Origin: Candidatus Parcubacteria bacterium
GTDB taxonomy: Bacteria; Patescibacteriota; Patescibacteriia; Patescibacteriales; UBA12465
Assembly (NCBI GenBank): GCA_023444045.1
Contig: JAEZRQ010000006.1
Location: 29,533-93,532, forward strand
Direction: 5' to 3'
Length of the DNA: 64,000 nucleotides
The notes under the pieces were generated by a model. It ran no database searches and was not told the origin of the DNA. It saw nothing but the letters and a program-made list of their open reading frames with translations. Below are positions 2,480 through 50,796 of this stretch, in pieces. Position 1 is the stretch's first letter. Every line of letters begins with the position of its first letter. The position numbers were made by a program, and so were the translations under genes.

Positions 2480-2490
2480 AATTAAAAAAA

Positions 2491-2528: not shown

Positions 2529-2554
2529 TAAAAGGCTTTATTTTAGCACTTAAA

Positions 2555-2583: not shown

Positions 2584-2633
2584 AATATCACAGGTTGAGG
2601 CAACCTTTTTTATTGTTTTTAAACTTATTTAAT

Positions 2634-3287: not shown

Positions 3288-3310
3288 AATAATATAAATA
3301 TAGAAAATTT

Positions 3311-3913: not shown

Positions 3914-3918
3914 ATTTT

Positions 3919-4407: not shown

Positions 4408-4422
4408 ATTTTTTGAAGTTTT

Positions 4423-21515: not shown

Positions 21516-21741
21516 TTGTAAAAGAAAATCAGGAGAAAGTTTTGAAAGTTTTTTACGCAAGTTCAAGAAGGCTTTGAAAAATGGTAAGCGTTTAGAAAAG
21601 GCTCGTGAGAAGCAACACTTAGTTCCTAAAAAAACTAAGCGTCAACAAAAGAAATACGCGATTACTAGTTTGAAGTTAAAGAAAGAAAAAGATTTCTTGC
21701 GTAAAACCGGTAAACTCTCTGAAGAAGAAATGAGAAGATAA
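21508..21741 (+). CDS. rpsU: 30S ribosomal protein S21
   Basis: Basic 77-aa protein (FESFLRKFKK...KAREKQHLVPKK). SD-like AAAGGTGG 10 nt upstream of ATG 21508. Overlaps the hisS stop. Confidence 0.8.
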   Translation: MADCKRKSGESFESFLRKFKKALKNGKRLEKAREKQHLVPKKTKRQQKKYAITSLKLKKEKDFLRKTGKLSEEEMRR

Positions 21742-23271: not shown

Positions 23272-23280
23272 TGGTATAAT
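23272..23280 (+). promoter_or_regulatory. extended -10 promoter element (TGgTATAAT) for the giant-protein gene
   Basis: TGGTATAAT about 37 nt upstream of ATG 23317, in the divergent rel/giant-gene intergenic region. The -35 is weak. Confidence 0.3.
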
Positions 23281-23316
23281 TATTATATCACAATAATTAA
23301 ATATTAATATAAATAA

Positions 23317-26010
23317 ATGAGAAGAAGACTGGCCTCTTTTTTGAAAAGATTTGCCTTGCCATTTTTATTAATTTTGGCGTTTTTTCTATTGTTTAATAGC
23401 GTTTCTGCAGCTACAGTTGATGTGGGAATAGACCAGGTAGATAGTAATATTGGTCTAGAGAATAATAGCCCAACTACAATTGTCATTAGAATTATTCAAA
23501 TAATTTTAGGACTACTGGGAATAATTTCGGTTGTCATTGTTATCTATGGAGGGTTTTTATGGATGACTTCTAGTGGCAGTGAAGAAAAAATTTCTAAAGC
23601 TAAGAGATTGTTAAAAAATGCTGTCATTGGTTTGATTATTATTTTATCTTCTTGGGGGATTGTTTATTTTGTTTTAACCAAATTACTAGGTATTAGTGAT
23701 TCAGTCAGTTTGTTTAGATCTCCTAGCAATGTTAGTAATTCTAATAATTTAAGTTTAGGAGCTTTAGGTTCTTGTTCGCTGGAATCTGTCTATCCCAGTC
23801 CCGGTGCTACAGATGTTCCTAGAAATTCCACTATCTTAATAACTGCTAAAGAAGCTTTTCAGCTAGACACTGTTTGTCTTAATAAAGATACTAAAAGGCC
23901 TTGTGCTTGTGATAATACCGCTAATTGCAATTTATTAAATTTTGAAAATATTCAAATATACCAAACAAATGAGGGCAATTCCTGTTCCCCTGGCAACTGC
24001 GGAACTAATTTAAAAGAGGTGGAAGTCTCTGTTCCGGCTGGCAATAAAACTATTGTTTTAAAGCCGCTAGTTAATCTAGGGGCCGCTAGTGGAAAAGTAG
24101 AGTATGGAGTTAAGCTAACAAATGATCTTAAAAAATTTGGTGGCGAAGCTCTTTTTTCGTCTTGTTCATCTGACTATTTAGAATGGTTTTTTGAAGTTAA
24201 TAATACTTTAGATCTTACCCCACCCCAAGTAACCTCTGGCGGATTTTTTCCTCAAGTGGACAATGCGGCTGATTTAGTAAAGATAAATTCCGAGGCTAAG
24301 GCCGCTTCAGGGAAAATTGTTATTACCAGTTGCCCAAATACCTACACCCCCGCCAGTTTAAGTAATGTTACCAAGATTGGGAATTCGGTTGACGCTGAAG
24401 TTTTAGTAAATCCAAATTATTCAGGAATCATTACGGATTTTAAAGTTGAGGTTGCTGGTAATAAAATGCGTCTTTTTAGTGGCAACAGTCTCTTGGATTC
24501 GGTAGACATTGTTAATAATGAGGCTAATTTTTCTAGCTATTTTTTGGTCAAGTTATCTAGTGTTAGTTCGGGTAATTCCTGGAATGTTATTGTTAAGCCC
24601 GTTCAGGCGGCTGATACTTTAGCAGTGGGCTCAAATTCTTACATCTTCGCTGACCGTGAAAAAAATGCCAACAATGAAATCGCTGTTCCTGATAATTGTT
24701 CACCAACTGCTATGGCTACTAATATTGAAATTGCTTTAAGTGGCCACAAGGAGATTAATGTTGTAAGTTCGGGTGGGACTTTGACGCTATTTGCTAAACA
24801 AACTGGCATATCTGGTAATAGTTTGCCACTTTCTTCCAGTGCCAAAGGATTGGAATTACAACCATTTTCTGGTGGGGCCGAAAAAAGTGATTCTTATGAA
24901 ATAAGGGGCGTGCAGGATAAACCAATGAATTCAATCATTCAAATTAATTTTAATGAACCGATTAATCCAATGGTTCTTTCTGGTACGTCTGATGAATTAA
25001 GTAATTTTGTTCAGATAGTTAATGCTAATGCTTCTGCTAAATCTGCTGGCGAGTCTTGTTCTTTAGACAGTGATTGTTTGTCTTATAGCTGCCAAGCTAC
25101 TAAATGCGCTGGTAATTATATTAGCGGCACCTTTTCTTTAGATAACTCTTACCAAACGGCGGAATTTGTTTCCAATAAAGAATGTGGTGTTAATAGTTGT
25201 GGGGAGAAAATGTATTGTCTACCAGCTAGTAGCCACTTAGCTGTTAGACTTAAGGCGGCTACTTTAAAGTCCTGTAGCACCGTTTCTGATTGCAGCGCTT
25301 TAGCTCCTTATTCAGAATGTGTTAGCAGTGTTTGCCATAACAGTAGTACGGGTGAGAACTATCCGGTAGCTAATTCTTTACAGTTAGACGGTATCGTTGA
25401 CTTAGCCTTTAACTCTTTAGACGGTAATCGCGATGGACTAGCTGATGGACCAATAATAAAAGTTTACCCTTACTTTGTAGAGGGGGATGCTAATTTAGAA
25501 AAAAGAGATGGTTTTGAATTCTCTTTCTTTATTAGTAATCAACTAAACTTAACACCACCAAGCATTGCCTTAACCTCTCCAAGACTCGAGGAAGATGGGG
25601 TAATGCTCTCAGCTCCAGTAGTAATTGATTTTAATGACTTAATGATGCAAAGCACTTTAAAATCCGGCAGCCTTTCTATGAGTAATGAACTAGTAAAGAC
25701 TGAGCATAAGTTAATTAATATAAAAAGCTCAGTTGATAAGCCTTTAGGTTATTGGATAGAAAGCGAGAACAAAGAAATTGGTACTCTTGATGGAATTCCT
25801 GATTATACTTCAGCCAGAATTTTACATTCAGATTTTTTTGAATCAGTTACTTATATTTCCCAAATTGGTTCAGGAGTTAAAAATATTTATCAAAATTGTT
25901 TTAAACCAAGTATTGGTCCGGGTTGTTTTAATCTAAGCGAAGCTAATCCTTCTTGCTGTTTTGGTGAGGGAACAAATGCCTTAGATGCTAACGGCAACTG
26001 TGCCAATTAA
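23317..26010 (+). CDS. large secreted surface protein (897 aa): signal peptide + two-helix membrane-hairpin module + Ig-like (SbsA/Big-type) domains + Cys-rich region
   Basis: Sec signal (…NSVSA-ATV). Two hydrophobic helices flanking GGFLWMTSSGSEEKISKAK. Big-like motifs (VYPSPGATDVPRNSTILITAKEAF; PMNSIIQINFNEPINPMVL). Paired Cys in the C-terminal half. Confidence 0.7.
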   Translation: MRRRLASFLKRFALPFLLILAFFLLFNSVSAATVDVGIDQVDSNIGLENNSPTTIVIRIIQIILGLLGIISVVIVIYGGFLWMTSSGSEEKISKAKRLLKNAVIGLIIILSSWGIVYFVLTKLLGISDSVSLFRSPSNVSNSNNLSLGALGSCSLESVYPSPGATDVPRNSTILITAKEAFQLDTVCLNKDTKRPCACDNTANCNLLNFENIQIYQTNEGNSCSPGNCGTNLKEVEVSVPAGNKTIVLKPLVNLGAASGKVEYGVKLTNDLKKFGGEALFSSCSSDYLEWFFEVNNTLDLTPPQVTSGGFFPQVDNAADLVKINSEAKAASGKIVITSCPNTYTPASLSNVTKIGNSVDAEVLVNPNYSGIITDFKVEVAGNKMRLFSGNSLLDSVDIVNNEANFSSYFLVKLSSVSSGNSWNVIVKPVQAADTLAVGSNSYIFADREKNANNEIAVPDNCSPTAMATNIEIALSGHKEINVVSSGGTLTLFAKQTGISGNSLPLSSSAKGLELQPFSGGAEKSDSYEIRGVQDKPMNSIIQINFNEPINPMVLSGTSDELSNFVQIVNANASAKSAGESCSLDSDCLSYSCQATKCAGNYISGTFSLDNSYQTAEFVSNKECGVNSCGEKMYCLPASSHLAVRLKAATLKSCSTVSDCSALAPYSECVSSVCHNSSTGENYPVANSLQLDGIVDLAFNSLDGNRDGLADGPIIKVYPYFVEGDANLEKRDGFEFSFFISNQLNLTPPSIALTSPRLEEDGVMLSAPVVIDFNDLMMQSTLKSGSLSMSNELVKTEHKLINIKSSVDKPLGYWIESENKEIGTLDGIPDYTSARILHSDFFESVTYISQIGSGVKNIYQNCFKPSIGPGCFNLSEANPSCCFGEGTNALDANGNCAN

Positions 26011-26030
26011 TCGATAAATTTTGTTTTTAT

Positions 26031-29000
26031 ATGTTTAAAAAAAATATCAAATTATATAGTTTAATATCTATTCTTGGGGTAGTATTTTTATTTTCTGCTA
26101 AAGCTGTTTTGGGTGTTGATGCTGGCATTGATACTGTTGGTAGTGATTTGTCTCTATCTGATAAAAGTCCAATCCAAATTGCCACCAGCATTATTAATGT
26201 AATCATGAGCATTCTTGGACTGTTAGCCGTTGCTTTTGTGTTGTGGGGTGGTTTTATCTGGATGACTTCAAATGGGAGTGAAGAAAAAATTGCTCAAGCT
26301 AAAAAAATTCTTAGAAATGGTGGTATTGGTTTGGTAATTATTTTATCTGCCTGGGGAATTACTTATTTTGTCTTAACTAAGTTATTAGATTCTGTTGGTA
26401 CCGGTAACGGTGGTTTTGATGGCTGTACTAGTGGCGCGACATCTTCTTGCGGTTGTGGTGGTGAGCAAACCTGCACTAATGGCAGTTGGGGACCATGTCT
26501 TGGCTCTTCTTGTCAGCCACTTATTGACGGACCAACCAGCTGTGACGGAAAACCGGCGGTTGACAAGTGTCAACCAGATGCTGGTTTGTGTGGGGATGAT
26601 TATTTCTGTAATGAAAATAGTTGTCTGTGCGAGCCAAAAGCTAGCTTAGGAGAATCTTGTAACGCTAATTCAAGTGGAACTTGTTCGGCTGATGATAGCT
26701 TGTGCGGTCCTTATTTAAAATGTGACCCCAATGATTGTGTTTGTGTTGGCCCTCCGGTAATTACCGGCGTTAGTCCAGCAGGAGGATTCTGTGTTAACGA
26801 TCAAAACAGGGGCTGTAACACCGATGCTGATTGTTTAGGTGGAGCAAAGTGTGATGTTATTACTCCCAATGGTGGCAGTAATAATTTTCTTACTATCTAT
26901 GGTTATAATTTTGGGACAGCTACTAACCTGTTTGAAAATATTTTAACTAATATTGATTTTGAAAAGGGGGCAGAAGGGGCTCTGCCAAATGATTGGACCG
27001 CCTCTAATCAAAAGAATTCTAAAGTAGGAATTTCTAAGAAAGAAGCTCGCTCAGGGGAGCAGAGTGTTTTGATTCATCAGGATTCTAACATAGTCTATCC
27101 AGGCACCTGCACTAAGAGTATTTGTCAAAATTTATCTTCTTGTTCTTGGAGTGATGCTAATAAAACTTGTACTTTCCTGCAGGGCGACGATGCACATAGA
27201 CAAGCGCCAGCAGTTTATAGTGAAGGACAGAGTTTAGTTTGGGGAAACACTAATAGGACTATGTGGGCCAAACTGACATATAATTTAGCCCCTCTTGACT
27301 TTCAGGTTGGCGATACTTATTCAATTCAATTTTATTATAAAGGAAAAAACACAGCCAACGTTTCAGTGGGAATTGGCTATAATTTAGGCTGGACATCTCA
27401 GTGTATTGGTTATTCTTCATATGGAGCTTTAAAACCTGGTTACAGTTGGAATGGGTCAGCTGTTACTCCAACTCCCCCTGAAGGAGAAGATCCTTGTGCT
27501 CCTGCTTATGGGAAAACTTGTGCTGATCAACAAAATACTTGTTGTGTTAATGCCCCAAATCAAACTAAGTGTTATCAGTTTTTAAACATGACGGCTATTC
27601 CTAAGGGGAATGTTGATGATTGGACCCTTTATTCTTATACCTTTCAATATACTCCAGAGATGGATTCTTGGTTAAATAGCGCTGGGAAAAAGGCGATTGA
27701 AATTGGAATGTCAATTGGATATAACTCTACTCTAACAGGAACAGATTTATATATTGATGATTTTACCGTTACTAAAATTTTAAATACCGGACAAATAACT
27801 TTTTTGGGAGCAGACCAGAGTCAACAACAATTAGCTAATTTTCCAAAACTTTTAAATCCCAATTGTGTTAGCTATTGGACTGATCGGCAAATTACTATTG
27901 CGGTGCCATCTGGTGCGGCTACTGGTCCAATTCAGATAAAAAGGGAAGGTGAATTTGCTGATAATATTGACACCACCAACAATGAAGTTGGCCCAATTAT
28001 TCCAGATTTTATTAAAAACGACATATCTAGACCAAGTTTGTGCCAAATCAGCCCTAGTCAGGGATTATTAGGTGAGAAGGTTGATTATCAGGGAATTAAT
28101 TTAAAAAATGGCGTGGCTTACTTTGGAGAATATTCCAACGCTTACAGAGGAATAAACTCTATTTTTACTGCTGATAATTTATCGGGCCAAACTATGGCGC
28201 CAAATATAGTTCCTGGTAAAACTACTACTTTTATTGAAAGAACCGCGGCCGGGATTAATCAAAAAAGTAATGCTTTGATGTTTGTTAAAGAAAGAGAGGC
28301 TGAGGCTGGTCCTTATATTTCCTCATTTTATCCAAAGACAGGTGCCGCTGGTCAATACGTTACCATCCTAGGTGGTGGTTTTGGTAATCTCCGTGGTAGC
28401 AGACAGGTATTTTTTGGAGATAAAGAAGCCTCATACTCTTTCCCAGAAGTTTGTTCAAATTCAGTTTGGAGTGATAGTCAAATCATTGTTAAAGTGCCTG
28501 ATGGTTTAAACCCTGGTAATTATCAAATTAAAGTGAATTTAGGGGATAAAACAGTAAATACTGATTTATTAGCCCCAAATCATAATTTTAAATATGACCC
28601 CAGTCAAACTCTAAAAACTAGTTTATGTAAAATAGACCCAAGTAGGGGGCAGGTTGGTGATAAAGTTACTCTGTGGGGTGAATATTTTGGTAATCAAGAA
28701 ACAGATGCTCTAGTAGTTTTTAACCGTGGTGTTAATATTACTTCAAAAATTACTAAAGATGGTTTAGCTGATAAAGTTGAAACAATTGTTCCGGTAGATG
28801 CTAGTAAAAATCCTCCAGTTAGCGCTATCACTGGCCCTGTTAAGGTAATGAAAAATAGTGAGTGGGGCAATGAACTTAATTTTACAGTTGGTAAATGTTC
28901 TTCTAATAATGAATGTAGCGCTTCTAGTCCAGTTTGTTGTCCTGGGAATACATATAAATCTGGTTCCTGTGCGGCCTCAACAATGGCTTGTTATTTTGAT

Positions 29001-32000
29001 GTCCCTAATTCTGTCTATGAAACTAAATTTGATACAACCATAGGTTCTGTTAACGTGGAAGATTTTAGTAGTTGTATTGAAATGGCTACTTTCTATAACG
29101 GTTGCCAGACCGGACAATTCTGTCCTAATTCTCCAGGTAAGTGTTCCCCCTTTAATCCAATTGGCGTTATGGAAGTTGTAAGTGCTTGTGGAGCTAATGG
29201 CTTAGAGTGTGGTAGTATTAAATCTTGTGAGTTAGATGATAAAACCACGCCACGTATTATGTACTGGGCGGGCAAGGTTAATCAGCACTGGGATTTAGCT
29301 AGTGGTAGTTTTGTGACTGATCCTGACGGCTCTTCTGGCGCTGGTTTAAATAAACTGTCATATTGTCAGAAGTTTTATCCAGAGACAGAAAGTGTGGTCG
29401 CTTATAAAAAAGAGACCAGTAATACTTGGAAAAATGCGGGTAATTTAGATAATTTTACTGGCACCGCCCTTTCTTATCGTTGTGTCTTAAAAGGCGAAAC
29501 CGTGTGTTCTTATGACAAGAATAATGATAATTGTCAGATTAAAGATTCTCTACTGCAAAATAAAACTTGTCTTTTAGAAAAGGAATTAGAATACTCCTTA
29601 GCGGGGCAAAACTATAAAGGCAGTCTAAGTTGTCGCTCTTATCAAGATAAAGTTAGTGGTCAAAGTTATTTTGCTAAACACCTCAAGGTTTCCACTTCTT
29701 GTCCTCAAGGCTGGTTAAATGTTGGTGGTGGTTACTGTATTGATGCTGCCTTAACTAAATGTGACCCTTGTGCTGATGGTTTCAAGTGTGTGGATAATAA
29801 TAATGATGATTTTGGAATTTGTGAGTCTGATAAAATTTGCCCCGCCTCTTCTTATTGTGGTATTAATCCTAATGATTCCAAGCAGCTAGCTTGTTTAAAG
29901 GATCAGGATAAGAGTTGTGATTGTTGTTGTGAAATTGGTCAAGATACCAGAGATTGTTGCGCTCCGCTTACATGTGCTGGTACTTGTGGTAGTGACACTA
30001 CTAATGATGGCAAGGGTTATGGTAGTTGTTCTGGTTGCGCTGATGTTCCTGGTGATCAAAAAATAAAAGATGCCGCCTGCAATTGTAGTACTACTAGCGG
30101 TAAGTTCTGTGATATCACTAAACCTGGTGGTATCTGTGTTGATTGTGCAGCGCTTGATGAAGCCTCTTGTTCACTTCATGCTACTCAATGCTGCTTTGAT
30201 CAAATGAAAGGTATTTGTCAGGGAGGTGACGGAACACAATTACCTGGTGGTAAATGCGCTTATTATGATTGCGATGCTGAAAATCAAACTTGTAACCAAA
30301 ATCCTTTAGCCACAGGACGATTCACTTCGCCCGATGTTTGTGAAACCTCTTGTAAAGATAATCCAACAACAGTTTGCGATTTACCAGCAAGTCAAAATCC
30401 TCAGAGCTGTTCGGCTTTAGATAACTGCTGTTTTGATGATAAAAATAAAAAATGTCTTTCCGGTCTAGACGCTATTAATGTTTCTGGCGTTAAATATTGT
30501 GCTTATTATGATTGTGATTTTAGCCAGTTAGACGGTGCCTCGCTTTATAAGTGTAGCGCTGCTAAAATTTCGGGAAATTATTTGAGCCTGGCTAATTGTC
30601 AAGATGCTTGTGGTAATACTAATACTAATTTACCAGGTTCAAGCTGTCAGTCTGACACAGCTGATGTTTGTGATGTCAGTGCTTGTTCGGGAGATTACTC
30701 TTGTTTAAGTGAATCCGGAAATCCTCCTTCCACATCAGGCTGTGGTACTTGCTGCTGTGACCCTAAAAATGAGAACTCTTGTTCTGGTACAGATAATTTG
30801 ACCTGTACACCTAATGTGGGATCTTGCAGTGGAAATGATCGCGGTTTGTGTTGTGGATGTACTTCCGATAGTCAATGTGGTATTGCCTCAGCTGGTTGTG
30901 GGACAGATACTTGTTGTCATGGCAGACCACAAATAGTAAAAACTTCACCAGTAAATGGTCAAGAAAAGGTGTGCCGCAATAGCCAAATTGTTATTAATTT
31001 CAACGAAGAAATGGACGCTACTAGCTTGGGTAATAATATTCTTCTAATTGAAGAAAAAGAATATGGCAAGGAGCTGTGTAATCTTGGTACAGCAGTTTCT
31101 TTAGAGAATACTAACCCTAATAGAAATTTCTTGGCTACTATTTATAGAAAAATAGCACTGATCTTTAATAGAATATTTAACAAGCAAGCTTATCAAGTCT
31201 TAGCTTCTATGCCTTCAGAAGACAAATTATATTGTATTATTCCCGGTACCGTTGATACTCAAACAGAATATGCTCCTAACGGGGTAACTTCAACAGTTGC
31301 TTATATTAAACCGAACAGTGTCCTTAATGCTAACAACAATTATTTTGTAGTTGTTAAAGGTGATGAAAATATGGATAGTAATTCTGGAATTATGAGTCTG
31401 CAAAAAATTGGTTTTGATGGTTCTGCTGCTAAACCGCTAGGAGACACAACTCTTCTTACTGGGGCAGAATTTAACAAAGTTTCCTTTAAAAATTCTTATG
31501 TCTTTAGTTTTAAGACTATGGACGATAATAGTGGTAAGGATGGTTTATGTACAATTGATAAAGTTGAGGTTAAGCCCAGCTCTTTCTTAATTAAAACAGA
31601 TGAAAATAATCCTTCAGATGATAATCCTTCAGATAATAACTTTGATAAAATAAATGATAATGACAGGTTGCTGACAGCTATGGCATATAGCGCTGATAAC
31701 CAACTTATTCAGCCAGTCACGGGGTACTATTGGACTTTTAATTGGAGCATTGATGATACTTCAGTGGCTCAAAAAATTGACAAATCGGGCTTAAAAAATA
31801 ATCAGTTGTTAGTAAGATCGGTCACTGGAGTAACTGATAAGAGTACCAAAATTTCTGCCAAAGTTAATATGAACAATTTCAAAACATCAAGCGGTTGTTC
31901 TGTAAATTGTGTTTGCAATGATAATAATTGTGATAACAGATGCTGTAACGCTAATTTTGAGGGGGAAAATGCTACTAGTGAATCAACTCTTTATGTTTTC

Positions 32001-33221
32001 TTATGCGCTAATCCTTGGCCGGCAGAAAAGAATGGTATTTGGAGTCCTTGGTATGATACCGGGGAATGTCGTGATGCTAATCAGAATATTATTCCTTGTG
32101 CTAACTATAATTATAAGTTCTACTATTGTCGTGATGCCGGAGAACCTGGTACTTTTGATGATTTACCAGTTGTTTCTGACCCGGCCTTGATTCTTGGTCC
32201 TTCAAGTAATTTAATCTGTAGCACAGATGGTCTTCCTTGCAGTACACAAGGGGCAGTTTGCGGTAACAATGGAACCTGTGTCTGGAGCGTGTTAAAAGAA
32301 TCATACTTCTTTAGAGAAGCCGCTCCTCAAGCTGGGCGTATTAACAAAATACTTAGTACTGGTGTTGGCGGAGAGATAGCATTAGGCTGGAATTCACCTA
32401 TTAACACAGAAGCACCAATCAGCTCTTTTAAAGTTTATTATGGGCTTAGCTCTGGTGGTTCAACTTTATTAAAAACATTATCCTTGGCTGAAGCTAATTG
32501 TAAAACGGAGAATAATGAGCTGAATTGTTCTTATATATTAAAGGATTTGGTGAATGGACAAAAATATTATTTTAGAGTTTCATCTTTAACCGAGAAGAAA
32601 ACTGAGAGCCCACTTTCTGGCGGCATGGAGATAATTCCCACTGATACCACTCCACCAGATAGACCAGCAAGATTAAAAATAGTTGGTTCCGGTGATGATT
32701 TATTGGTTACCTGGTATCCTGATACTAAGAATGACACTTTATATTATCGCTTATTTCATGGCATATTCCCTGGAAAAATAATGGATTCGTTTGATTCTCA
32801 AGAAAAGGCTACTAGTTTAACTCTTAAACAGAGTGATTATCGCGCAGGCGATCATTACTTTTCTTTAGCAGCTATTGATTCTTATGGAAATATCAGTGAT
32901 AAGTCTAGTGAAATTAAGGTGACTATTCCTAATACCCCAACCAATGTAACTGTTGCTGATAATAGGTATTATTTAACCGTTTCTTGGAATAAGAATAATA
33001 ATCCAGGAAATACTAAGTATGCAGTTTTTATGAGTAAAGATGGTGGCGGTGAAATACGTGCTAATGATCTTAATCAGGAGCTAATTGATCAATCATCCTT
33101 TAATATTGATTCCAAAAAATATGAAAATGGCACTTATTATATTTCTGTTGAGGCCTATGATCACCAAAATTTTAAGAGTAAAAGATCGGAATCATTTAAA
33201 ATTGATATAAATAAAAATTAA
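26031..33221 (+). CDS. giant secreted surface protein (2396 aa): same N-terminal module as upstream gene, jelly-roll/CBM-like domain, several IPT/TIG-like domains, about 600-aa extremely Cys-rich region, SbsA-Ig-like and FN3-like C-terminal domains
   Basis: N-terminus paralogous to 23317 gene (GGFIWMTSNGSEEKIAQAK; WGITYFVLTKLL). IPT/TIG-like PVITGVSPAGG..., ISSFYPKTGAAGQYVTILGGGFG, CKIDPSRGQVGDKVTLWGEYFG. FN3-like PDRPARLKIVGSGDDLLVTW. Confidence 0.75.
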   Translation: MFKKNIKLYSLISILGVVFLFSAKAVLGVDAGIDTVGSDLSLSDKSPIQIATSIINVIMSILGLLAVAFVLWGGFIWMTSNGSEEKIAQAKKILRNGGIGLVIILSAWGITYFVLTKLLDSVGTGNGGFDGCTSGATSSCGCGGEQTCTNGSWGPCLGSSCQPLIDGPTSCDGKPAVDKCQPDAGLCGDDYFCNENSCLCEPKASLGESCNANSSGTCSADDSLCGPYLKCDPNDCVCVGPPVITGVSPAGGFCVNDQNRGCNTDADCLGGAKCDVITPNGGSNNFLTIYGYNFGTATNLFENILTNIDFEKGAEGALPNDWTASNQKNSKVGISKKEARSGEQSVLIHQDSNIVYPGTCTKSICQNLSSCSWSDANKTCTFLQGDDAHRQAPAVYSEGQSLVWGNTNRTMWAKLTYNLAPLDFQVGDTYSIQFYYKGKNTANVSVGIGYNLGWTSQCIGYSSYGALKPGYSWNGSAVTPTPPEGEDPCAPAYGKTCADQQNTCCVNAPNQTKCYQFLNMTAIPKGNVDDWTLYSYTFQYTPEMDSWLNSAGKKAIEIGMSIGYNSTLTGTDLYIDDFTVTKILNTGQITFLGADQSQQQLANFPKLLNPNCVSYWTDRQITIAVPSGAATGPIQIKREGEFADNIDTTNNEVGPIIPDFIKNDISRPSLCQISPSQGLLGEKVDYQGINLKNGVAYFGEYSNAYRGINSIFTADNLSGQTMAPNIVPGKTTTFIERTAAGINQKSNALMFVKEREAEAGPYISSFYPKTGAAGQYVTILGGGFGNLRGSRQVFFGDKEASYSFPEVCSNSVWSDSQIIVKVPDGLNPGNYQIKVNLGDKTVNTDLLAPNHNFKYDPSQTLKTSLCKIDPSRGQVGDKVTLWGEYFGNQETDALVVFNRGVNITSKITKDGLADKVETIVPVDASKNPPVSAITGPVKVMKNSEWGNELNFTVGKCSSNNECSASSPVCCPGNTYKSGSCAASTMACYFDVPNSVYETKFDTTIGSVNVEDFSSCIEMATFYNGCQTGQFCPNSPGKCSPFNPIGVMEVVSACGANGLECGSIKSCELDDKTTPRIMYWAGKVNQHWDLASGSFVTDPDGSSGAGLNKLSYCQKFYPETESVVAYKKETSNTWKNAGNLDNFTGTALSYRCVLKGETVCSYDKNNDNCQIKDSLLQNKTCLLEKELEYSLAGQNYKGSLSCRSYQDKVSGQSYFAKHLKVSTSCPQGWLNVGGGYCIDAALTKCDPCADGFKCVDNNNDDFGICESDKICPASSYCGINPNDSKQLACLKDQDKSCDCCCEIGQDTRDCCAPLTCAGTCGSDTTNDGKGYGSCSGCADVPGDQKIKDAACNCSTTSGKFCDITKPGGICVDCAALDEASCSLHATQCCFDQMKGICQGGDGTQLPGGKCAYYDCDAENQTCNQNPLATGRFTSPDVCETSCKDNPTTVCDLPASQNPQSCSALDNCCFDDKNKKCLSGLDAINVSGVKYCAYYDCDFSQLDGASLYKCSAAKISGNYLSLANCQDACGNTNTNLPGSSCQSDTADVCDVSACSGDYSCLSESGNPPSTSGCGTCCCDPKNENSCSGTDNLTCTPNVGSCSGNDRGLCCGCTSDSQCGIASAGCGTDTCCHGRPQIVKTSPVNGQEKVCRNSQIVINFNEEMDATSLGNNILLIEEKEYGKELCNLGTAVSLENTNPNRNFLATIYRKIALIFNRIFNKQAYQVLASMPSEDKLYCIIPGTVDTQTEYAPNGVTSTVAYIKPNSVLNANNNYFVVVKGDENMDSNSGIMSLQKIGFDGSAAKPLGDTTLLTGAEFNKVSFKNSYVFSFKTMDDNSGKDGLCTIDKVEVKPSSFLIKTDENNPSDDNPSDNNFDKINDNDRLLTAMAYSADNQLIQPVTGYYWTFNWSIDDTSVAQKIDKSGLKNNQLLVRSVTGVTDKSTKISAKVNMNNFKTSSGCSVNCVCNDNNCDNRCCNANFEGENATSESTLYVFLCANPWPAEKNGIWSPWYDTGECRDANQNIIPCANYNYKFYYCRDAGEPGTFDDLPVVSDPALILGPSSNLICSTDGLPCSTQGAVCGNNGTCVWSVLKESYFFREAAPQAGRINKILSTGVGGEIALGWNSPINTEAPISSFKVYYGLSSGGSTLLKTLSLAEANCKTENNELNCSYILKDLVNGQKYYFRVSSLTEKKTESPLSGGMEIIPTDTTPPDRPARLKIVGSGDDLLVTWYPDTKNDTLYYRLFHGIFPGKIMDSFDSQEKATSLTLKQSDYRAGDHYFSLAAIDSYGNISDKSSEIKVTIPNTPTNVTVADNRYYLTVSWNKNNNPGNTKYAVFMSKDGGGEIRANDLNQELIDQSSFNIDSKKYENGTYYISVEAYDHQNFKSKRSESFKIDINKN

Positions 33222-33238
33222 ATTTTAAATATAAAAAC

Positions 33239-36200
33239 ATGAGGGCTACAAAAATAAAATGGCAGAAATGGGGAATATATCTCTTATTTCTATTCATTAT
33301 TGCAATACTAAGCTTTCAGGCTAGAGCAACGACTCAGTCTGATGCGATTGCTGTTAGAGTTCTACCTAATATTAATCATGACAGTATTGATGTTTGGTAC
33401 AAAAATCAGGGTTATAAAGGCTCTCCTCAAAGCTTAACGGTTGATGGTTATGAGGCGATTAGAGACGGCCGAACAGTTTTTGTCAATGCTGCTAATTTAG
33501 ATACAGTCAATAAAAAGTTATATACCAACGTTTACCTGATTTCCTATAATCAAGATTCGGAAGTCAAAACTCTAGATGTATTAGGGCAATTAATTTCTCA
33601 TTGGAAATTTAACAATAATATTAATACCACCGGTTCTTGTTCAATCTCTAACTTTAATTGTAGTGCTGATACCGATTGTCCCAGTGGTTATATCTGCTCT
33701 AATTCTAATTCCATGGGCTCTGATCATTCATCAGCTTCTAATAAAGGAAAGTGCATTCTAGAAAAAGGAAAAACTTGTTTACTTGATAGTGATTGTCCAG
33801 TGAATTTATTTTGTGATAGCTTAAAAGCGCGTACCATAAGAGATGTTAGAAGATTAGGTGATATGAATCAATTGAAAGAAGCTATTGAAAGGTTTAAAAA
33901 TAATAATAATACTTATCCAACCCTATTAACAGGAACTTATTTAAGCGGCGGGACGCTATCTGTTTGGCCAAGCTGGAAAGATACTTTATCAACTCAACTT
34001 GGATTAAATAAAATTATTTCTGATCCTATTAATTCTTTAGGCTATTGCGAGGGGTATGATCCTAAAACTTGTTGGGATGAAACAAAAAAATCTTTCGTTA
34101 ATTCCGATTTAGTTTTACCTTATGGCAGCTACGCTTTAGCTTACAAGTCCTCACCAAACGGCATCTCTTATAGTTTGTGTTCTACTTTTGAGACTAAAGA
34201 TTTGGGTTATGATACAGCTGGTGGGAGATTTGCCAAAGAGAATTGTTTAGAAAGTATTTTTTATAGCGGCAATGTTTCAAATACGGCTCCTAAAGTAATC
34301 GGGTCATTCACTCAAGGGCAAACAAGTAAGGAGTTTAATGGTTATATTAGAGCCATTGATGCTGAAGGTGATAGTATTTCTTGGAATCTTGGAGTAACTT
34401 CACCTAGTTCTTGGGTAAACAGTGGGTGGCAAGTTGGCCCAAATCTAATCCCTACATTAAGAGACACTGATAACCCTAATCAAAAGCAAATCTATCACCC
34501 CACAACAGGAAGGGCTGGTAAGTACGAGATGTTGTTAACTTTAACAGATAGTCGTGGAGCAGTTAGTACTAGCACAATTATTCTTGATATTAGTGCTGTA
34601 GCTAAGCCAAGGATAGAAGCTGATAATGCTGATTACTTTGTTGATCCAATAAATCCATTAAAATATACTTTTTATTTAGAGGGAGAGAACTCTGTGCCAA
34701 CTTATAATATCACTCCAGCTAACCCTAGTCATGCCTCTGCTAAATTAGCTGATTTTGCTACTATGACTAGCAGTCAAACATCTGTCGGTTTAAATCGGGT
34801 TAGAGTAGATCTTTCTTTTAATGTCCTGACTTCGGTTAATATACCAGAGAATATTTCTATTCCTTTTAAAATAACTGCTACTGCCGCTGGAGTTTCGTCT
34901 ACTAAAGAGGTGACTATTAATTTTAGAATTGAAAAACCGCTGTTAAATTTTGATTGTGATTTACTTGCTCGTAAGGGTAAGAGTTATCCGTTAAATGGTA
35001 ATTGTTTTTTAGGCAGAACTAAGAGTGGTAATTTAAACATTAACTATTCAGTGAGCGGGGTAAATGGAATTTCAGTTCAATATGGTGGGCAAGATTCTTC
35101 TGGTTCAAAAGATGCTTTCTTAAGAGGTTTTATCAGTGATACTGGTACTAAAAATATAACTGTCAGAGCAGAAAATGATTATGGCGCTTTCTCTGAAAAA
35201 ACATTTCCTTTAACAGTTAACACTTTTTGTGGTGATGGTATCTTACAGCGACCAAATAGTGAGGGCAGAGGTGGCCTTTATAATGATGGCATGGAAGAAT
35301 GTGATATTAAAGCTGGGGTTACTGATAAAATTAGTACCTCTTCCGCATTGCAATATGCTTGTAATAGTGGCAGTAATACCCCATTTCCAATAGTTGATAA
35401 TAATAGCTGTATTTTTAAACCGGCTGATAAGGGGGGCGGCTTTTGTGGTGATGGTGTTTGTCAGTTTAAAATTGAGGGTGGGGTAATGATGGAAAATTGT
35501 TGGAATTGTTCACAAGATTGTGGTCAATGTTTAGCAACAATTATCTCTAAGGCTGATGATGAACACGCTACTTATTTAAATAGTGAGCCTCTCTACTCTG
35601 GCACTCAAGGTGCTACTCAAAGAATGCTGGTGCCTGGAAAAAATATTTTTACCTTTGCTGCTTATAATAGTCAAGATAATGACTATGGGGTGGCTTTTAA
35701 AATAAAAATTGGTCCAACTTCAGCTAAGTTAAATGCTGATGGTTTTGACTCTAGTCATGGATTCTTTGATATTGAAAATAGCTTTGCGCAAATTGATTCC
35801 TCCAGCGGTCTTCTAAAATGTGTTGCTTTAAAAGATGAGGAAGCTAAAACAAACTTTCAAAGTGATGGGTCTTATAATTGGACTCAGCTTGGTTATAGTA
35901 AGTTATGGCCAAAAGCAAAAGTTAATACTAAAAAATTATCATTTTTAGGCAGTCCATATATTTGGGCAGCAGATGGTAATGGTAAAAGTGAAAATATTTG
36001 GTGCCGTTTAGTCTTTGATTATAGTAATTATAACACCGAAGTATGCCAACCGGACTGTAGTGGTAAAAAATGTGGCTCAGATGGTTGTGGTGGAGTATGT
36101 GGCACCTGTTCTGATGATAAAGATTGTTCTTCTGATGGAAAGTGTTTGTCAAAATGTGTGCCTAATTGTGTAGGAAAATGTGGCGGTGATGATGGCTGTG

Positions 36201-36637
36201 GAGGAACCTGCAAGAGCTTTTGTATATTGCCGCTTACTTGTGGTGGTAGCGGGATAACTAATGTTTGCGGTTTAGCCTCAGAAAACACTAACAATCAAAC
36301 TTGCACCCCCGATTGTGTGGGTAAGTGTGGCGGACCGGATGGTTGTGGTGGAACTTGTGTAAACACTTGCTGCTCAGGATATGTTTGCTCAAATAGCGTT
36401 AAATGTAATCCCGTTGCTTCAGGGGTTGAGACTGAAAGAACTGGGATGTGTTATTCAAATTCTGATTGTCCGAGTGATTCTTGCTATGATAATTTATGCC
36501 GTTCCGATGGTCTGACTGAGTCAACAAAATGTTGTATTGGTGTTTGTAAGCCAAGCTCTTTGGACACTGGAGGTGTTGGTGGTGGCAGCGGTAACTATCG
36601 TAGTTATTATGAGAACGACTCCCTTGAGAGAAACTAG
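33239..36637 (+). CDS. large secreted Cys-rich protein (1132 aa) with CGDG...EECD repeats and three tandem C-x-PDC-x-GK-CGG-x-DGCGG-x-C repeats
   Basis: Sec signal (FQARA-TTQ). FCGDGILQRP...MEECD and FCGDGVCQF... (myxococcal-type Cys repeat pattern). C-terminal CQPDCSGKKCGSDGCGGVCGTC / CVPNCVGKCGGDDGCGGTC / CTPDCVGKCGGPDGCGGTC. Confidence 0.7.
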   Translation: MRATKIKWQKWGIYLLFLFIIAILSFQARATTQSDAIAVRVLPNINHDSIDVWYKNQGYKGSPQSLTVDGYEAIRDGRTVFVNAANLDTVNKKLYTNVYLISYNQDSEVKTLDVLGQLISHWKFNNNINTTGSCSISNFNCSADTDCPSGYICSNSNSMGSDHSSASNKGKCILEKGKTCLLDSDCPVNLFCDSLKARTIRDVRRLGDMNQLKEAIERFKNNNNTYPTLLTGTYLSGGTLSVWPSWKDTLSTQLGLNKIISDPINSLGYCEGYDPKTCWDETKKSFVNSDLVLPYGSYALAYKSSPNGISYSLCSTFETKDLGYDTAGGRFAKENCLESIFYSGNVSNTAPKVIGSFTQGQTSKEFNGYIRAIDAEGDSISWNLGVTSPSSWVNSGWQVGPNLIPTLRDTDNPNQKQIYHPTTGRAGKYEMLLTLTDSRGAVSTSTIILDISAVAKPRIEADNADYFVDPINPLKYTFYLEGENSVPTYNITPANPSHASAKLADFATMTSSQTSVGLNRVRVDLSFNVLTSVNIPENISIPFKITATAAGVSSTKEVTINFRIEKPLLNFDCDLLARKGKSYPLNGNCFLGRTKSGNLNINYSVSGVNGISVQYGGQDSSGSKDAFLRGFISDTGTKNITVRAENDYGAFSEKTFPLTVNTFCGDGILQRPNSEGRGGLYNDGMEECDIKAGVTDKISTSSALQYACNSGSNTPFPIVDNNSCIFKPADKGGGFCGDGVCQFKIEGGVMMENCWNCSQDCGQCLATIISKADDEHATYLNSEPLYSGTQGATQRMLVPGKNIFTFAAYNSQDNDYGVAFKIKIGPTSAKLNADGFDSSHGFFDIENSFAQIDSSSGLLKCVALKDEEAKTNFQSDGSYNWTQLGYSKLWPKAKVNTKKLSFLGSPYIWAADGNGKSENIWCRLVFDYSNYNTEVCQPDCSGKKCGSDGCGGVCGTCSDDKDCSSDGKCLSKCVPNCVGKCGGDDGCGGTCKSFCILPLTCGGSGITNVCGLASENTNNQTCTPDCVGKCGGPDGCGGTCVNTCCSGYVCSNSVKCNPVASGVETERTGMCYSNSDCPSDSCYDNLCRSDGLTESTKCCIGVCKPSSLDTGGVGGGSGNYRSYYENDSLERN

Positions 36638-36662
36638 GGTTATTTAATTAAATATTATTTCT

Positions 36663-36905
36663 ATGCTACAATTAAGTAAAAATAAAAAAATATTAATTCT
36701 TCTTATAATTTTATTCTTATTAATATTTATTTTTGTTTTATTAATAAAAAAACAGAATAATGGCGTTAACATTCCTGATCAGACAACTTCAGCAACAAGA
36801 GAGATGACGGAAATTGAAAAATCAATGGTGGTCGGTATTGACCCATCACAAGAGGCTGAGGTGTTAAATGAGTCAGATGGTTTATATATTTATCGTATTA
36901 AATAG
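36663..36905 (+). CDS. small single-pass membrane protein
   Basis: 80 aa, N-terminal TM (ILILLIILFLLIFIFVLLI). Confidence 0.4.
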   Translation: MLQLSKNKKILILLIILFLLIFIFVLLIKKQNNGVNIPDQTTSATREMTEIEKSMVVGIDPSQEAEVLNESDGLYIYRIK

Positions 36906-36926
36906 CAAATAATAATAAAAAATTTT

Positions 36927-37700
36927 ATGTTTAATGATCTAGATCAAAACAAAGGAGTTGCTCCACAAACTACGCCAGTTGATGATATTTTTGCTGATAC
37001 TGACAAAAGCAGTGAAGAGAAGAAAATTTCCGGCTATTACAACACATCAGGAGCTGGTCTTTCTCAATCAGAAATAGAGGCTCAAAAAATTGGTTTAGCC
37101 GCTTCTCAGGGGCCAGCAGTTTCTAATAAGGGGAAAACCCTGAAGATTGTTTTGTTGGTTGTTTTAACAATTTTAGTAATTAGTTTAGGGGTGGTGGTAT
37201 ATTTTAAATTTCTTGCTAATCCGGTGACAACTGAGATTGAGGAGCCAATTAACACTAACCAAATTACAACTCAAGCAACATCTCAGCAGCAAACTCCAGA
37301 AGTGATAGAACCGACTGTGCCACTTGAAAATGATATTACTACTACGACTAATGAGTTAACTGCAACATCAACAACCTCTACTCCGGCAGTGGTTGAGGTA
37401 TTAGATACTGACGGCGATGGTTTGTCCGATGAAGAAGAAATGATTTTAGGCACAGACTCTAATTTAAAGGATTCTGACGGTGATGGTCTGTCAGACTTTG
37501 AAGAGATTAAAACCTATAGTACTAATCCAAATAAAGTAGATTCAGATGAGGATGGTCTCTCTGATTATGAAGAGATTATGATTTATAAAACTGACCCAAA
37601 TAATTTAGATACTGATGGTGATAGTTATGGCGATGGTCAGGAAGTTGGTGGTGGTTATAATCCTTTAGGAGAAGGCAAGCTTCTTAGTATTGAAGATTAA
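36927..37700 (+). CDS. membrane-anchored protein with thrombospondin type-3-like Ca-binding repeats
   Basis: Central TM (IVLLVVLTILVISLGVVVYF). Four tandem D-x-D-G-D-G-L-S-D-x-E-E repeats (DTDGDGLSDEEE, DSDGDGLSDFEE, DSDEDGLSDYEE, DTDGDSYGDGQE). Confidence 0.6.
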   Translation: MFNDLDQNKGVAPQTTPVDDIFADTDKSSEEKKISGYYNTSGAGLSQSEIEAQKIGLAASQGPAVSNKGKTLKIVLLVVLTILVISLGVVVYFKFLANPVTTEIEEPINTNQITTQATSQQQTPEVIEPTVPLENDITTTTNELTATSTTSTPAVVEVLDTDGDGLSDEEEMILGTDSNLKDSDGDGLSDFEEIKTYSTNPNKVDSDEDGLSDYEEIMIYKTDPNNLDTDGDSYGDGQEVGGGYNPLGEGKLLSIED

Positions 37701-37702
37701 TT

Positions 37703-37900
37703 ATGGATTATTTAGGTGTAAAAAATAAAGTTAAAGCTGTAAATAATCAACGTCTTTCCAAAGCTGGTTCTAAGATATTTTTGGGGTTGCACGTAATGCC
37801 GCAAAAAAAAGAATCAAAAGATGTTCGTGTTTTTAGTTGGTTAACAGCTATTTTATTAATCTTAACTAGTTTGATTATTTTTTTAATGATTTATGTTTAA
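37703..37900 (+). CDS. small membrane protein
   Basis: 65 aa, C-terminal TM (WLTAILLILTSLIIFLMIYV). Tightly packed between paralogous TSP3 genes. Confidence 0.3.
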   Translation: MDYLGVKNKVKAVNNQRLSKAGSKIFLGLHVMPQKKESKDVRVFSWLTAILLILTSLIIFLMIYV

Positions 37901-38921
37901 AAGAGCTGTTAAAGTAAAAGAAGAATTAGCAAAGAATCCAACTGAAGAGCAAGTTAAGCAGGATTTTGTAACCAGAAATATGCCAGATTTTAGCCGCTTA
38001 TCTTCGCAAACCTTCGCTAGCTCGGTAAACACTCCAAGTGCCAATAAGGGCAAAATTGATATTCCAAAAAAAGAGAACCATCAGAAAGTTGGGGTAGTGA
38101 TTATTATTTTAGGAATAATCTTTGTTTTAGTTTTGATTTATTTAGGCTATCTTTACTTTATTAAGCCAAATTTAGCATCTCCTGAGAGTGAGGTTATCTA
38201 TACCCAAGAGACGGTTGAGCAAAATAATGAAGAAAGTAAGGCAGGTGAGGTCATCTTAGAAGATAAAAACATTAACACCGAAGAGCCTATCATTGTAACA
38301 ACCACGCCAGAGATATTAGAGGAAGATGAAGAATTAGTTATGCCAGAGGAACTGCCGATAGTTTCTAATGTTATTACTGTCTCTAAAGTTGATTCTGATG
38401 CTGATGGCCTAACTGACGATGAGGAAACAATTATTGGCACCGATTTAAACAGAGCTGACACCGATGGCGATGGCTATCTAGACTTAGCAGAAATTAAGAG
38501 CGGTTATAATCCTTTGGTGCCAGCAGAAAAACTTTCTGAAAGCGCAGCAATTTATAATTATCAAATTGATTCACTAGCGACGGTAATCTATCCAACATCA
38601 TGGGAGGTAGTAGAGAACGAAAGTAATAACATGGTGATGTTTGCCGATGATGATAGGGCTTTTATTCAAGTTCTTTATCAGGAAAACCCTCAAAAACTAA
38701 CACCAAACTCGTGGTTCGCTGATCAATTTTCTGGTTTAAAACCGGGTGAATCTATTAGCGGCGATTCTTGGGAGGGATTTTTTTCTCAGGACGGGTTGTC
38801 GGCTTATATATTTAATAAAGATTTTTCTAGGGTTTATAATTTTTCCTGTTCTCCGCTGACAGAGGATACTAGCAGCGTGACTATTTTTAACTTAATGATA
38901 AAAACCTTAATAATAAAATAA
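37893..38921 (+). CDS. membrane-anchored TSP3-repeat protein (paralog of 36927 gene) with extra C-terminal domain
   Basis: TM (VGVVIIILGIIFVLVLIYLGYLYF). DSDADGLTDDEE and DTDGDGYLDLAE repeats. Confidence 0.6.
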   Translation: MFKRAVKVKEELAKNPTEEQVKQDFVTRNMPDFSRLSSQTFASSVNTPSANKGKIDIPKKENHQKVGVVIIILGIIFVLVLIYLGYLYFIKPNLASPESEVIYTQETVEQNNEESKAGEVILEDKNINTEEPIIVTTTPEILEEDEELVMPEELPIVSNVITVSKVDSDADGLTDDEETIIGTDLNRADTDGDGYLDLAEIKSGYNPLVPAEKLSESAAIYNYQIDSLATVIYPTSWEVVENESNNMVMFADDDRAFIQVLYQENPQKLTPNSWFADQFSGLKPGESISGDSWEGFFSQDGLSAYIFNKDFSRVYNFSCSPLTEDTSSVTIFNLMIKTLIIK

Positions 38922-38934
38922 AATTCAGATAAAA

Positions 38935-38966
38935 AAAGACCCTTTAAAATTAAAAGGTCTTTTTTT
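38935..38966. terminator. bidirectional Rho-independent terminator between convergent genes
   Basis: AAAGACCCTTT...AAAAGGTCTTT hairpin flanked by A-run and T-run, between the + TSP3 gene and clpP (-). Confidence 0.6.
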
Positions 38967-48396: not shown

Positions 48397-48464
48397 TTTA
48401 ATTAAGGTTTTAAGGATTCTAAAATTCTTTAAGTTTATAATCTTTAAAACATTAAGAGTTTCTT

Positions 48465-50531: not shown

Positions 50532-50560
50532 TTTAAATATAAAAATTTAAGCATAAAAAT

Positions 50561-50707: not shown

Positions 50708-50796
50708 AAAATAAAACAGGAAAACCTAAGTGACTAAGGTGCTCCTTCCTTTGGTCTGAAGGTTGTCTATCTGGTCCTTTTTCCTTCTGCAAAAAT

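Follow-up and report, generated by a model that had tools for sequence, protein, structure and literature searches.

A pilin-anchored, cysteine-rich giant protein predicted at the cell surface of Falkowbacteria-type Patescibacteria

Based on our analysis of a 64,000-nucleotide stretch of DNA from a Candidatus Parcubacteria bacterium (contig JAEZRQ010000006.1 of GenBank assembly GCA_023444045.1, positions 29,533 to 93,532; hereafter, the window), we propose that one of its genes encodes a membrane-anchored, disulfide-rigidified surface scaffold with variable binding modules, a reading to which we give a probability of about 0.5. The gene lies at 26031..33221 on the forward (+) strand and encodes, from an ATG start, a predicted pilin-anchored, cysteine-rich surface protein of 2396 aa; its limits agree exactly with those in an earlier note that had been made on this DNA from the letters alone. 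We predict that this giant protein most likely mediates contact with other cells or surfaces. The sequence data show the gene itself, its domain content, the conserved positions of its cysteines, the homology of its N-terminal anchor to stand-alone pilins of type IV secretion systems (T4SS), the synteny and the lineage-specific inserts, and from here we infer membrane topology, disulfide bonding, complex formation and binding function.

Cysteine pattern and membrane anchor

The giant protein has 136 cysteines (5.7% of its residues), against 115 among 15415 residues (0.75%) in 39 other open reading frames (ORFs) of the window (binomial p = 6e-72), and all of them lie downstream of the membrane hairpin described below. 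In a MAFFT alignment of the protein with 38 homologues that are 30-70% identical to it, the mean conservation is 0.86 for cysteines and 0.33 for other residues. The total number of cysteines is nearly constant among the homologues, at about 120-136, and it is even in 81 of 108 family members (p = 1e-7). Where cysteines are lost, they tend to be lost as local pairs (132-148, 1180-1201, 1224-1236, 1523-1527 and 2157-2166). Even counts, paired losses and a position entirely past the hairpin form the pattern expected of a fully disulfide-bonded protein, and about 68 disulfide bonds probably stiffen the ectodomain.

The suspicion that the gene is an artefact, be it a mis-assembled chimera, a pseudogene or a low-complexity stretch called as a gene, has a practically negligible probability in our judgement and is refuted by several lines of evidence. 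The identical protein is found on 4 contigs, the longest being a 542,604-bp scaffold (ENA assembly ERZ28596294). A direct-repeat search found no direct DNA repeats of at least 30 nt in 23300-38950, and the repeats inside the gene are two trivial tandem repeats of 15-18 nt with 2.3 copies each. The architecture recurs among 153 homologous clusters, orthologues of similar length come from 105 species genomes including a closed chromosome, and both cysteines and motifs are conserved column by column. The earlier note had named low complexity of the cysteine region and chimeric mis-assembly as findings that would overturn its reading; since 113 of the 136 cysteines are kept in at least 80% of the 38 diverged homologues, the region is structured and is neither of these.

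That note had placed a cysteine-dense core at residues 900-1500. The core is real, and its extent is instead about aa 950-1650, where we count 81 cysteines with a median gap of 7, nearly all of them conserved; we annotate it at 28890..30923 (+; aa 954-1631). Its densest part, aa 1296-1631, contains 15.5% Cys with a median gap of 6, and the string that had been quoted as an example from residues 900-1500 actually starts at aa 1584, outside that range. A second dense block, absent from the earlier description, spans aa 131-275 with 22 cysteines; we annotate the N-terminal Cys-rich block at 26421..26750 (+; aa 131-240, the 22 Cys being counted to aa 275), and of the 22 cysteines of aa 101-300, all but one are each kept by at least 80% of homologues. 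Within the core, the 446 residues of aa 1195-1640 carry 60-62 cysteines in most homologues. This region includes an internal duplication at 30153..30620 (+), in which hhalign relates module rA (aa 1375-1450) to module rB (aa 1451-1530) with a probability of 99.3% (E=2.7e-20), both following the pattern C..CCFD..C...CAYYDC...C...C. Among five core blocks compared by hhalign, only rA and rB are related, and the others are unrelated to each other. Homologues with 51-52 core cysteines, in place of 60-62, have a core about 70-90 residues shorter, so that one copy of rA/rB would be missing from them.

AlphaFold2 (AF2) predicts aa 1195-1640 as a string of small, compact, strand-rich modules with a mean predicted local distance difference test (pLDDT) of 83.7, from a 33-sequence alignment. 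The disulfide-dense architecture had been described as eukaryote-like, and for the core the description fails: it shows no sequence or fold match to EGF, TNFR-CRD, furin-like, follistatin or LDLR-A domains. No Pfam family matched aa 118-300 or 1195-1640, even with E allowed to reach 10; Pfam and NCBIfam searches with the whole protein and nine sub-segments gave nothing for the Cys-rich blocks or for the highly conserved C-terminal stretch described below; the core alignment profile had 0 matches among PDB sequences; and Foldseek found no match for the core model in PDB or BFVD at E <= 0.001. Foldseek rows for follistatin, TNFR and LRP2 (E 0.7-2; best 0.71, for follistatin) were treated as noise, their template modelling scores (TM-scores) being mostly <=0.12. 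As it has no Pfam, PDB-profile or Foldseek relative, the core is eukaryote-like in style only, and its modules appear to be new cysteine-knotted fold families.

If the cysteines were not in disulfides, the giant protein could instead bind metal (Zn, Fe, Cu) or serve as an extracellular redox protein. The high density of cysteines, with CxCCC and CC motifs, would suit such a function, as would the anaerobic lifestyle suggested by NrdD/NrdG in the window and the lack of a Dsb-type gene there. Even cysteine counts and pairwise losses speak against it, however, and the conserved columns, inspected by eye, hold no His or Cys-His motifs of the Zn type. Moreover, AF2 folds the core confidently into small strand-rich modules in the absence of ligands, and its weak, non-significant structural neighbours (follistatin, TNFR, LRP) are all disulfide-rich. 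We regard a metal-binding or redox function as very improbable.

The N-terminus also bears on the reading as a membrane-anchored scaffold. Hydropathy identifies hydrophobic segments at aa 5-33, 47-80 and 97-119 only. A predicted Sec signal peptide at 26031..26105 (+; aa 1-25) consists of KK, a hydrophobic core and AKA before a putative cleavage site. It is followed at 26175..26378 (+; aa 49-116) by two hydrophobic helices with a short charged loop, and this module, to which the earlier note gave no name, is a pilin domain of the VirB2-like T4SS type, which changes the mechanistic picture. It matches PF18895 (T4SS_pilin) with E=5.4e-13 and 49.3 bits against a cutoff of 26.6, over profile positions 7-71 of 71, and NCBIfam NF045849 (the Mbov_0395 pilin-like conjugal transfer family of a mycoplasma integrative and conjugative element) with E=2.5e-9 and 36.7 bits, just below the cutoff of 40. 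Small proteins of 117-155 aa that contain PF18895 alone share 43-58% identity with residues 1-125. The closest stand-alone pilin, annotated as "pilin" in a metagenome-assembled genome (MAG) of Magasanikbacteria, is 148 aa long and ends right after helix 2; it aligns over both helices with 43% identity (E=3e-23). Judged by sequence comparison, the anchor is homologous to stand-alone pilins. The gene for the Magasanikbacteria pilin is also the last of at least nine T4SS_pilin genes arranged in tandem (115-177 aa; 331-4645 of the contig, ERZ795064), and no T4SS ATPase lies within 10 kb of that array.

Compared with the VirB2/TrbC-type pilins of Patescibacteria (PF18895), the first 120 residues are thus alike, being made of a signal peptide and two hydrophobic helices that the family profile recognises. 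The giant protein is unlike them in size and surroundings. Members of the family are small (about 100-180 aa, with known members at about 115-180 aa and the stand-alone relatives at 115-177 aa), whereas this protein of 2396 aa continues for 2,280 residues past the anchor, in a housekeeping neighbourhood and outside any pilin array or set of T4SS genes; the adjoining gene, which we call UP897, also carries the domain.

These pilin matches raise the question of whether the giant protein is an adhesin of a T4SS pilus, the VirB2-like domain being handled by the T4SS machinery of the lineage and co-assembling with small VirB2-like pilins, and the ectodomains of the giant protein and UP897 standing at the tip or base of a conjugative-type filament. 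The full-length match to PF18895, the match to the Mbov_0395 family and the identity of 43-58% to small pilins, one of them in an array of at least nine genes, would all fit, as would a VirD4/TrwB-like coupling-protein ATPase of 587 aa with a treble-clef zinc finger, encoded at 51773-53536, 18 kb downstream. A survey of T4SSs in the candidate phyla radiation (CPR) reports VirB2 arrays, a wide presence of T4SSs and T4SS essentiality, and states that "no adhesins, such as PrgB, were detected" (10.1101/2025.01.22.634366), and the giant protein would then serve as the contact adhesin not found there; its supplementary Table S1 places Falkowbacteria in GTDB class ABY1 and gives the listed genomes as VirB4-positive, which also favours the idea. 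The available part of the same text makes no mention of pilin domains fused to giant ectodomains. On the other hand, neither the 64-kb window nor the flanks of 84 loci, taken to 10 kb, contain VirB4, VirB6, VirB3 or VirB8, and an extension of 2,280 residues would not fit every VirB2-type subunit. Since, going by known pilus structures, this extension is too large for every subunit to carry it, the giant protein would at best be a minor pilus subunit. Beyond the ATPase and the two pilin-domain proteins, the window has no T4SS-related gene, and no relaxase lies near the ATPase. We consider a pilus adhesin unlikely. A bolder version, to which we give still less credence, is that the hairpin is an assembly module and the gene cluster the missing contact device of the Patescibacteria T4SS, with giant disulfide-armoured adhesins on a conjugation-type filament. 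If this were true, it would be a case of cargo attachment to a VirB2 pilus, undescribed in any bacterium, and a lineage-wide candidate for how ultra-small cells hold partners.

Modules of the ectodomain

Returning to the surface scaffold, the view that this is an extracellular multidomain protein, already held in the earlier note, is supported by the signal peptide, the membrane hairpin, the lack of any further hydrophobic segment and the succession of TIG, Big_5, Ig-like and FN3 domains with Cys-rich modules. Tandem TIG, Big and FN3 domains in a secreted protein are what is found in Ig-array adhesins. The count of at least four IPT/TIG-like domains given before holds in part: one is a strong Pfam match, two are weak, and one is recognised by its motif only. 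TIG-like domain 1 is split, its first half at 26751..26918 (+; aa 241-296), with a small Cys-rich loop and the motif PPVITG..SP.GGF, and its second half at 27792..27995 (+; aa 588-655); joined in silico, the halves match TIG at E=0.01. Between them, at 26919..27791 (+; aa 297-587), lies a clade-specific insert, possibly jelly-roll/CBM-like, that is a gap in about 70% of the 38 homologues; its only match is CBM_4_9 at E=0.034, below cutoff, and it has no PDB sequence match. TIG-like domains 2-4 follow at 27999..28889 (+; aa 657-953), assigned by Pfam, motif and PDB profile: TIG3 (aa 761-844) has E=4.2e-12, TIG4 E=0.015, and TIG2 is the one known by motif only. The profile matches CGTase domain D and an IPT/TIG chain in PDB. 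Besides aa 297-587, the stretches at about aa 1070-1157 and at 2306-2396 are optional, the three being gaps in 57-72% of homologues.

The SbsA-Ig-like and FN3-like domains that had been proposed for the C-terminal part are also found. A Big_5 (SbsA-type) Ig-like domain with an inserted loop lies at 30924..31541 (+; aa 1632-1837) and matches PF13205 in two stretches (E=4.5e-10). It is followed by an Ig-like β-sandwich at 31542..31985 (+; aa 1838-1985), predicted by AF2 with pLDDT above 90, whose best Foldseek matches are SbsC (4uic, E=8.6e-4) and SbsB (4aq1, E=2.3e-3), with query-normalised TM-scores of 0.28 and 0.31, respectively; Rib, ICAM and invasin-type domains come next, and FdeC is among the neighbours. 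Three FN3-like domains at 32325..33218 (+; aa 2099-2396) complete the protein, the first with E=3.2e-7, the third with E=5.9e-4 and the second assigned by position only. The last of them (aa 2306-2396) is clade-specific, and aa 2301-2396 are a gap in 69% of homologues.

The most conserved stretch is at 31986..32324 (+; aa 1986-2098), with the pattern CxNPWP..WxPWxD..YNYKFYYCRDAG..GTxDDLP..LKESYFFR. Conservation of the whole protein peaks here and not in the Cys core, with NPWP, YYCRD and DDLP invariant. The stretch has invariant columns in two alignments, low AF2 confidence, and no Pfam or PDB relative. Its peptide patterns YNYKFYY and [VI]LKESYFF are those that retrieved the 105 genomes. In a PDB profile search of the C-terminal region, a match to designed WRAP-T repeats (E about 0.01) was rejected.

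One insert in the core deserves separate treatment. Residues 1073-1170 (29247..29540, +), a clade-specific insert, match APP_N (PF02177) with E=5.8e-7 and 30.3 bits against a cutoff of 22.1; as a single sequence they match chain 7mrn_C of the amyloid precursor protein (APP) E1 structures with E=1.7e-7, and a profile of 11 bacterial copies matches PDB APP chains with E=4.8e-11. By these matches, the domain is homologous to the N-terminal heparin-binding, growth-factor-like domain of metazoan APP. It is the sole truly eukaryote-like piece of the architecture, and the earlier note, which had called the architecture as a whole eukaryote-like, missed it. Compared with the APP domain (PF02177; PDB 1MWP, 7MRN), about 85-95 residues align, including P-x-I-x-x-x-x-G-K-x-N-x-H, YC-x-x-x-YPE and YRC[VL]. 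It is unlike APP in keeping a single disulfide of three (the YC...YRC pair), the other four cysteine positions being W/A, a gap, K and N in the alignment with 7mrn_C, and in being an optional insert of a bacterial surface protein. In the numbering of human APP, its disulfides are C38-C62, C73-C117 and C98-C105, and one of the two that are lost closes the loop that carries the heparin-binding function of APP.

In other homologues an APP_N-like module is found near aa 815-910 or near the C-terminus, sometimes twice, and because its position differs between homologues it behaves as a mobile domain. When 1.84 billion representative proteins were searched exhaustively with a profile, a bacterial APP_N-like family of 643 clusters at 50% identity emerged, 475 of them at E <= 1e-10, with up to four copies per protein. 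The partner domains in eight scanned proteins are PG_binding_1, CARDB, fn3, TSP3_bac or subtilase, and one of ten APP_N proteins looked up bears a taxonomic name, Falkowbacteria. Our literature search, in which one query was swamped by papers on APP mouse models, returned no paper on bacterial APP_N domains.

Distribution and gene cluster

A homologue search of 5.8 billion proteins gave 153 clusters at E <= 1e-5, and the best 108 of these have T4SS_pilin, TIG and Big_5 domains, with or without fn3, in 1,560-2,640 aa. The family is already in databases under a generic name: the few named homologues are called "IPT/TIG domain-containing protein" and come from Patescibacteria MAGs (Falkowbacteria, Pacebacteria, Parcubacteria). 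Our literature search found no study of it. Weaker matches of 3,000-4,000 aa in Magasanikbacteria and Buchananbacteria share the pilin anchor and Ig-like domains and differ in their middles. When one genome per GTDB species was scanned, at least 105 genomes had a relative, one of them on a closed 977-kb chromosome; those of the 105 whose titles bear a taxon are Falkowbacteria or Patescibacteria. The source is a Falkowbacteria-type Patescibacterium of the class ABY1, an ultra-small bacterium of groundwater and lakes, in line with the CPR origin supposed before. The title "uncultured Gammaproteobacteria bacterium" is borne by many third-party-annotation metagenome bins with the locus, while Bacillota, Balneolaceae and Saccharimonadales occur as titles of single bins; these off-lineage titles appear to be wrong or placeholder labels by submitters, unfit for describing the distribution.

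The gene is the second of a cluster in which the spacers are 17-26 nt, with one 8-nt overlap. Where the contig reaches, the order in 84 loci is RuvB-QueA-LepB-HisRS-(RelA)-UP897-giant protein-DN1132-TSP3a-TSP3b-(ClpP)-SecD-SecF-Wzy_C. As both neighbourhood and order are fixed, we read this as a core, vertically inherited surface-protein cluster and not an accessory island. The gene for the giant protein accordingly belongs to the core set and keeps its place in the synteny, unlike an adhesin gene that is variable and accessory. An extended -10-like element, TGGTATAAT (23272..23280, +), in the 69 nt that separate the cluster from the divergent relA (-) is a possible promoter of the cluster; a consensus scan for promoters and terminators, which was uninformative in this AT-rich DNA, did not list it.

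UP897 (23317..26010, +) is a paralogue of 897 aa with a signal peptide, the T4SS_pilin hairpin (Pfam E=7e-11), a Big_5 Ig-like domain (E=8e-7) and a Cys-containing ectodomain, and it is 42.6% identical to aa 2-163 of the giant protein. All 26 of its cysteines are conserved in 45 orthologues (mean 0.99), and it has no PDB relatives. It lies directly upstream of the giant protein in 76-78 of the 84 loci; three divergent loci lack it. DN1132 (33239..36637, +), directly downstream in 77 of 84, is a predicted secreted Cys-rich protein of 1132 aa with 58 Cys and C-terminal CxPxCxGKCGxxDGCGGxC repeats; it has no Pfam, NCBIfam or PDB match, and 31 of its 58 cysteines reach a conservation of at least 80% among orthologues (0.71, against 0.30). 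Next come a gene called for an 80-aa single-pass membrane protein (36663..36905, +), weakly conserved in sequence (7 loci) and with a small gene at the same position in three other loci, and TSP3a (36927..37700, +; 257 aa), with bacterial thrombospondin type-3 (calcium-binding) repeats (TSP3_bac E=1.2e-20; 66 of 84 loci). A 69-nt tandem duplication in TSP3a (37482-37617; 2 copies, 76% match) corresponds to its calcium-binding repeats. A gene called for a 65-aa protein with a C-terminal hydrophobic helix (37703..37900, +) and TSP3b (37893..38921, +; 342 aa), with a TSP3/EF-hand-like calcium-binding motif (TSP3_bac E=1.1e-5; 65 of 84 loci), complete the cluster.

A cluster of this kind could also encode an envelope lattice, in which the calcium-binding TSP3 proteins and the Cys-rich trio form the proteinaceous outer layer, an S-layer-like or disulfide-cross-linked coat that is mainly structural or protective. 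A core cluster in fixed synteny, conserved from end to end in at least 105 species, would be in keeping with this, as would the calcium-binding partners, the Big_5 (SbsA-type) domains, the Ig-like domain that best matches SbsC and SbsB, and the statement that the make-up of the CPR envelope is unclear (PMC5220378). However, Pfam and NCBIfam find no SLH or other cell-wall-binding domain in the giant protein, UP897 or DN1132, and the Foldseek matches are to generic Ig-like folds, with E about 1e-3 and query TM-scores of 0.27-0.32. A hairpin-anchored protein of 2396 aa is moreover unlike known S-layer subunits, and its lineage-specific inserts are more easily explained by ligand binding. A lattice seems to us doubtful, about as much so as a simple pilus adhesin.

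The other neighbours in the window are housekeeping genes. A Wzy_C (O-antigen-ligase-like) gene with TPR repeats (42241-44193) stands in conserved synteny after SecDF and before the prepilin peptidase PilD (44198-44986), and a second Wzy_C gene is at 9041-10315. Since O-glycosyltransferases of pilins have Wzy_C as their catalytic domain as well, the surface proteins may be glycosylated. Within 16 kb, 47938-51516 and 61190-63490 encode NrdR, class III NrdD with NrdG, and a second, class II-like reductase with a B12-type insertion domain; together they suggest an anaerobic or micro-oxic lifestyle. A helicase-nuclease of the AddA/UvrD type (12691-16677, 1328 aa) contains an intein (Hint, Intein_splicing; roughly aa 265-627), and its orthologues in two other loci, of 971-996 aa, have no intein domains. 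Between HisRS and RelA, a 77-aa Lys/Arg-rich ORF (21508-21741) resembles ribosomal protein bS21 and is kept in 66 loci at about 71% identity.

Proposed function and its meaning

We suggest the following scheme for the surface scaffold. The giant protein would be exported by Sec, and its signal peptide removed, presumably by the signal peptidase I (LepB) of the conserved neighbourhood. The N-terminal VirB2-like two-helix hairpin would then keep it in the cytoplasmic membrane with its C-terminal side outward, the orientation of VirB2-type pilins before assembly. Roughly 2,280 residues would lie outside the cell as an elongated chain of four TIG-like domains, a Big_5, one Ig-like and three FN3 domains and small cysteine-knotted modules; at a few nm per domain, a rough estimate, this could be long enough to span the wall. 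The disulfide bonds, about 68, would make the ectodomain rigid and protease-resistant. On this conserved scaffold, sub-lineages have grafted extra modules, here a possible CBM-like insert, the APP_N-like domain and an extra FN3, and these would be the likeliest ligand-binding parts. The giant protein probably works together with the other products of the cluster, namely UP897, DN1132, the two TSP3 proteins and the two tiny membrane proteins, which would make up a conserved surface apparatus that contacts cells, polymers or surfaces. The function as an adhesin or in host attachment that the earlier note had proposed is plausible. Surface proteins that are predicted adhesins proved essential in the only Patescibacterium examined genetically (PMC11665869).

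Several observations weigh against this scheme. A host-specific adhesin would not usually show fixed synteny together with conservation of the entire length in at least 105 species, features that fit a structural envelope component equally well. No DsbA- or VKOR-type enzyme is encoded in the 64-kb window, and the anaerobic or micro-oxic lifestyle suggested by NrdD/NrdG fits oddly with about 68 disulfides. The predicted TM-score (pTM) of the AF2 core is 0.47, so that the arrangement between modules is not predicted. Finally, we found no domain with a demonstrated ligand: CBM_4_9 is below cutoff, and in the APP_N-like domain the binding loop is not conserved, two of the three APP disulfides being absent, among them the bond that closes this loop.

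Among known systems, the giant protein would work in the manner of a giant Ig-array adhesin or a surface fibril. With giant Ig-array adhesins (invasin/intimin-type, Rib/alpha-like) it shares an extracellular β-sandwich chain and the Rib, invasin-family and FdeC structural neighbours. Unlike them, it has no LPXTG, autotransporter or type I secretion signal and would be anchored by an N-terminal pilin hairpin; about one third of it consists of cysteine-knotted modules without known relatives; and its gene is core and syntenic, not variable and accessory. The Geobacillus proteins SbsA, SbsB and SbsC recall its Big_5 domain, its Ig-like domain matching SbsC/SbsB and the calcium-binding neighbour genes, whereas the giant protein has no SLH or wall-binding domain and is much larger, Cys-rich and predicted to be membrane-anchored; by the criterion of an anchoring domain, it is not an S-layer protein. 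The cysteine-rich repeat/DUF4215 proteins of Myxococcales (PF13948) are alike in that disulfide-dense extracellular proteins exist in bacteria, and DUF4215 is recorded in distant relatives of the giant protein and weakly in one DN1132 orthologue. Chlamydial OmcB-type proteins and Cys-rich wall proteins of planctomycetes are other Cys-rich envelope proteins of bacteria. The giant protein has no Pfam match to any of these families, from which the modules of its core appear to be distinct. Our searches of the literature turned up nothing specific on giant pilin fusions, on Cys-rich surface proteins of CPR bacteria or on their S-layer proteins.

Little is known of how CPR/Patescibacteria construct their envelope and cling to other cells; one genome paper calls the envelope of all CPR bacteria studied unclear (PMC5220378), and the T4SS survey cited above found pilins but no adhesins. 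In one large lineage, the giant protein joins a pilin hairpin to a probably disulfide-rich ectodomain of 2,280 residues, and it supplies several apparently new cysteine-rich fold families. That the APP growth-factor-like domain has many bacterial relatives is relevant to where this domain came from. With four to six partner genes, the gene has stayed at one chromosomal position in more than 100 species, which makes the giant protein a specific, conserved target for proteomics, cryo-ET and structural study.

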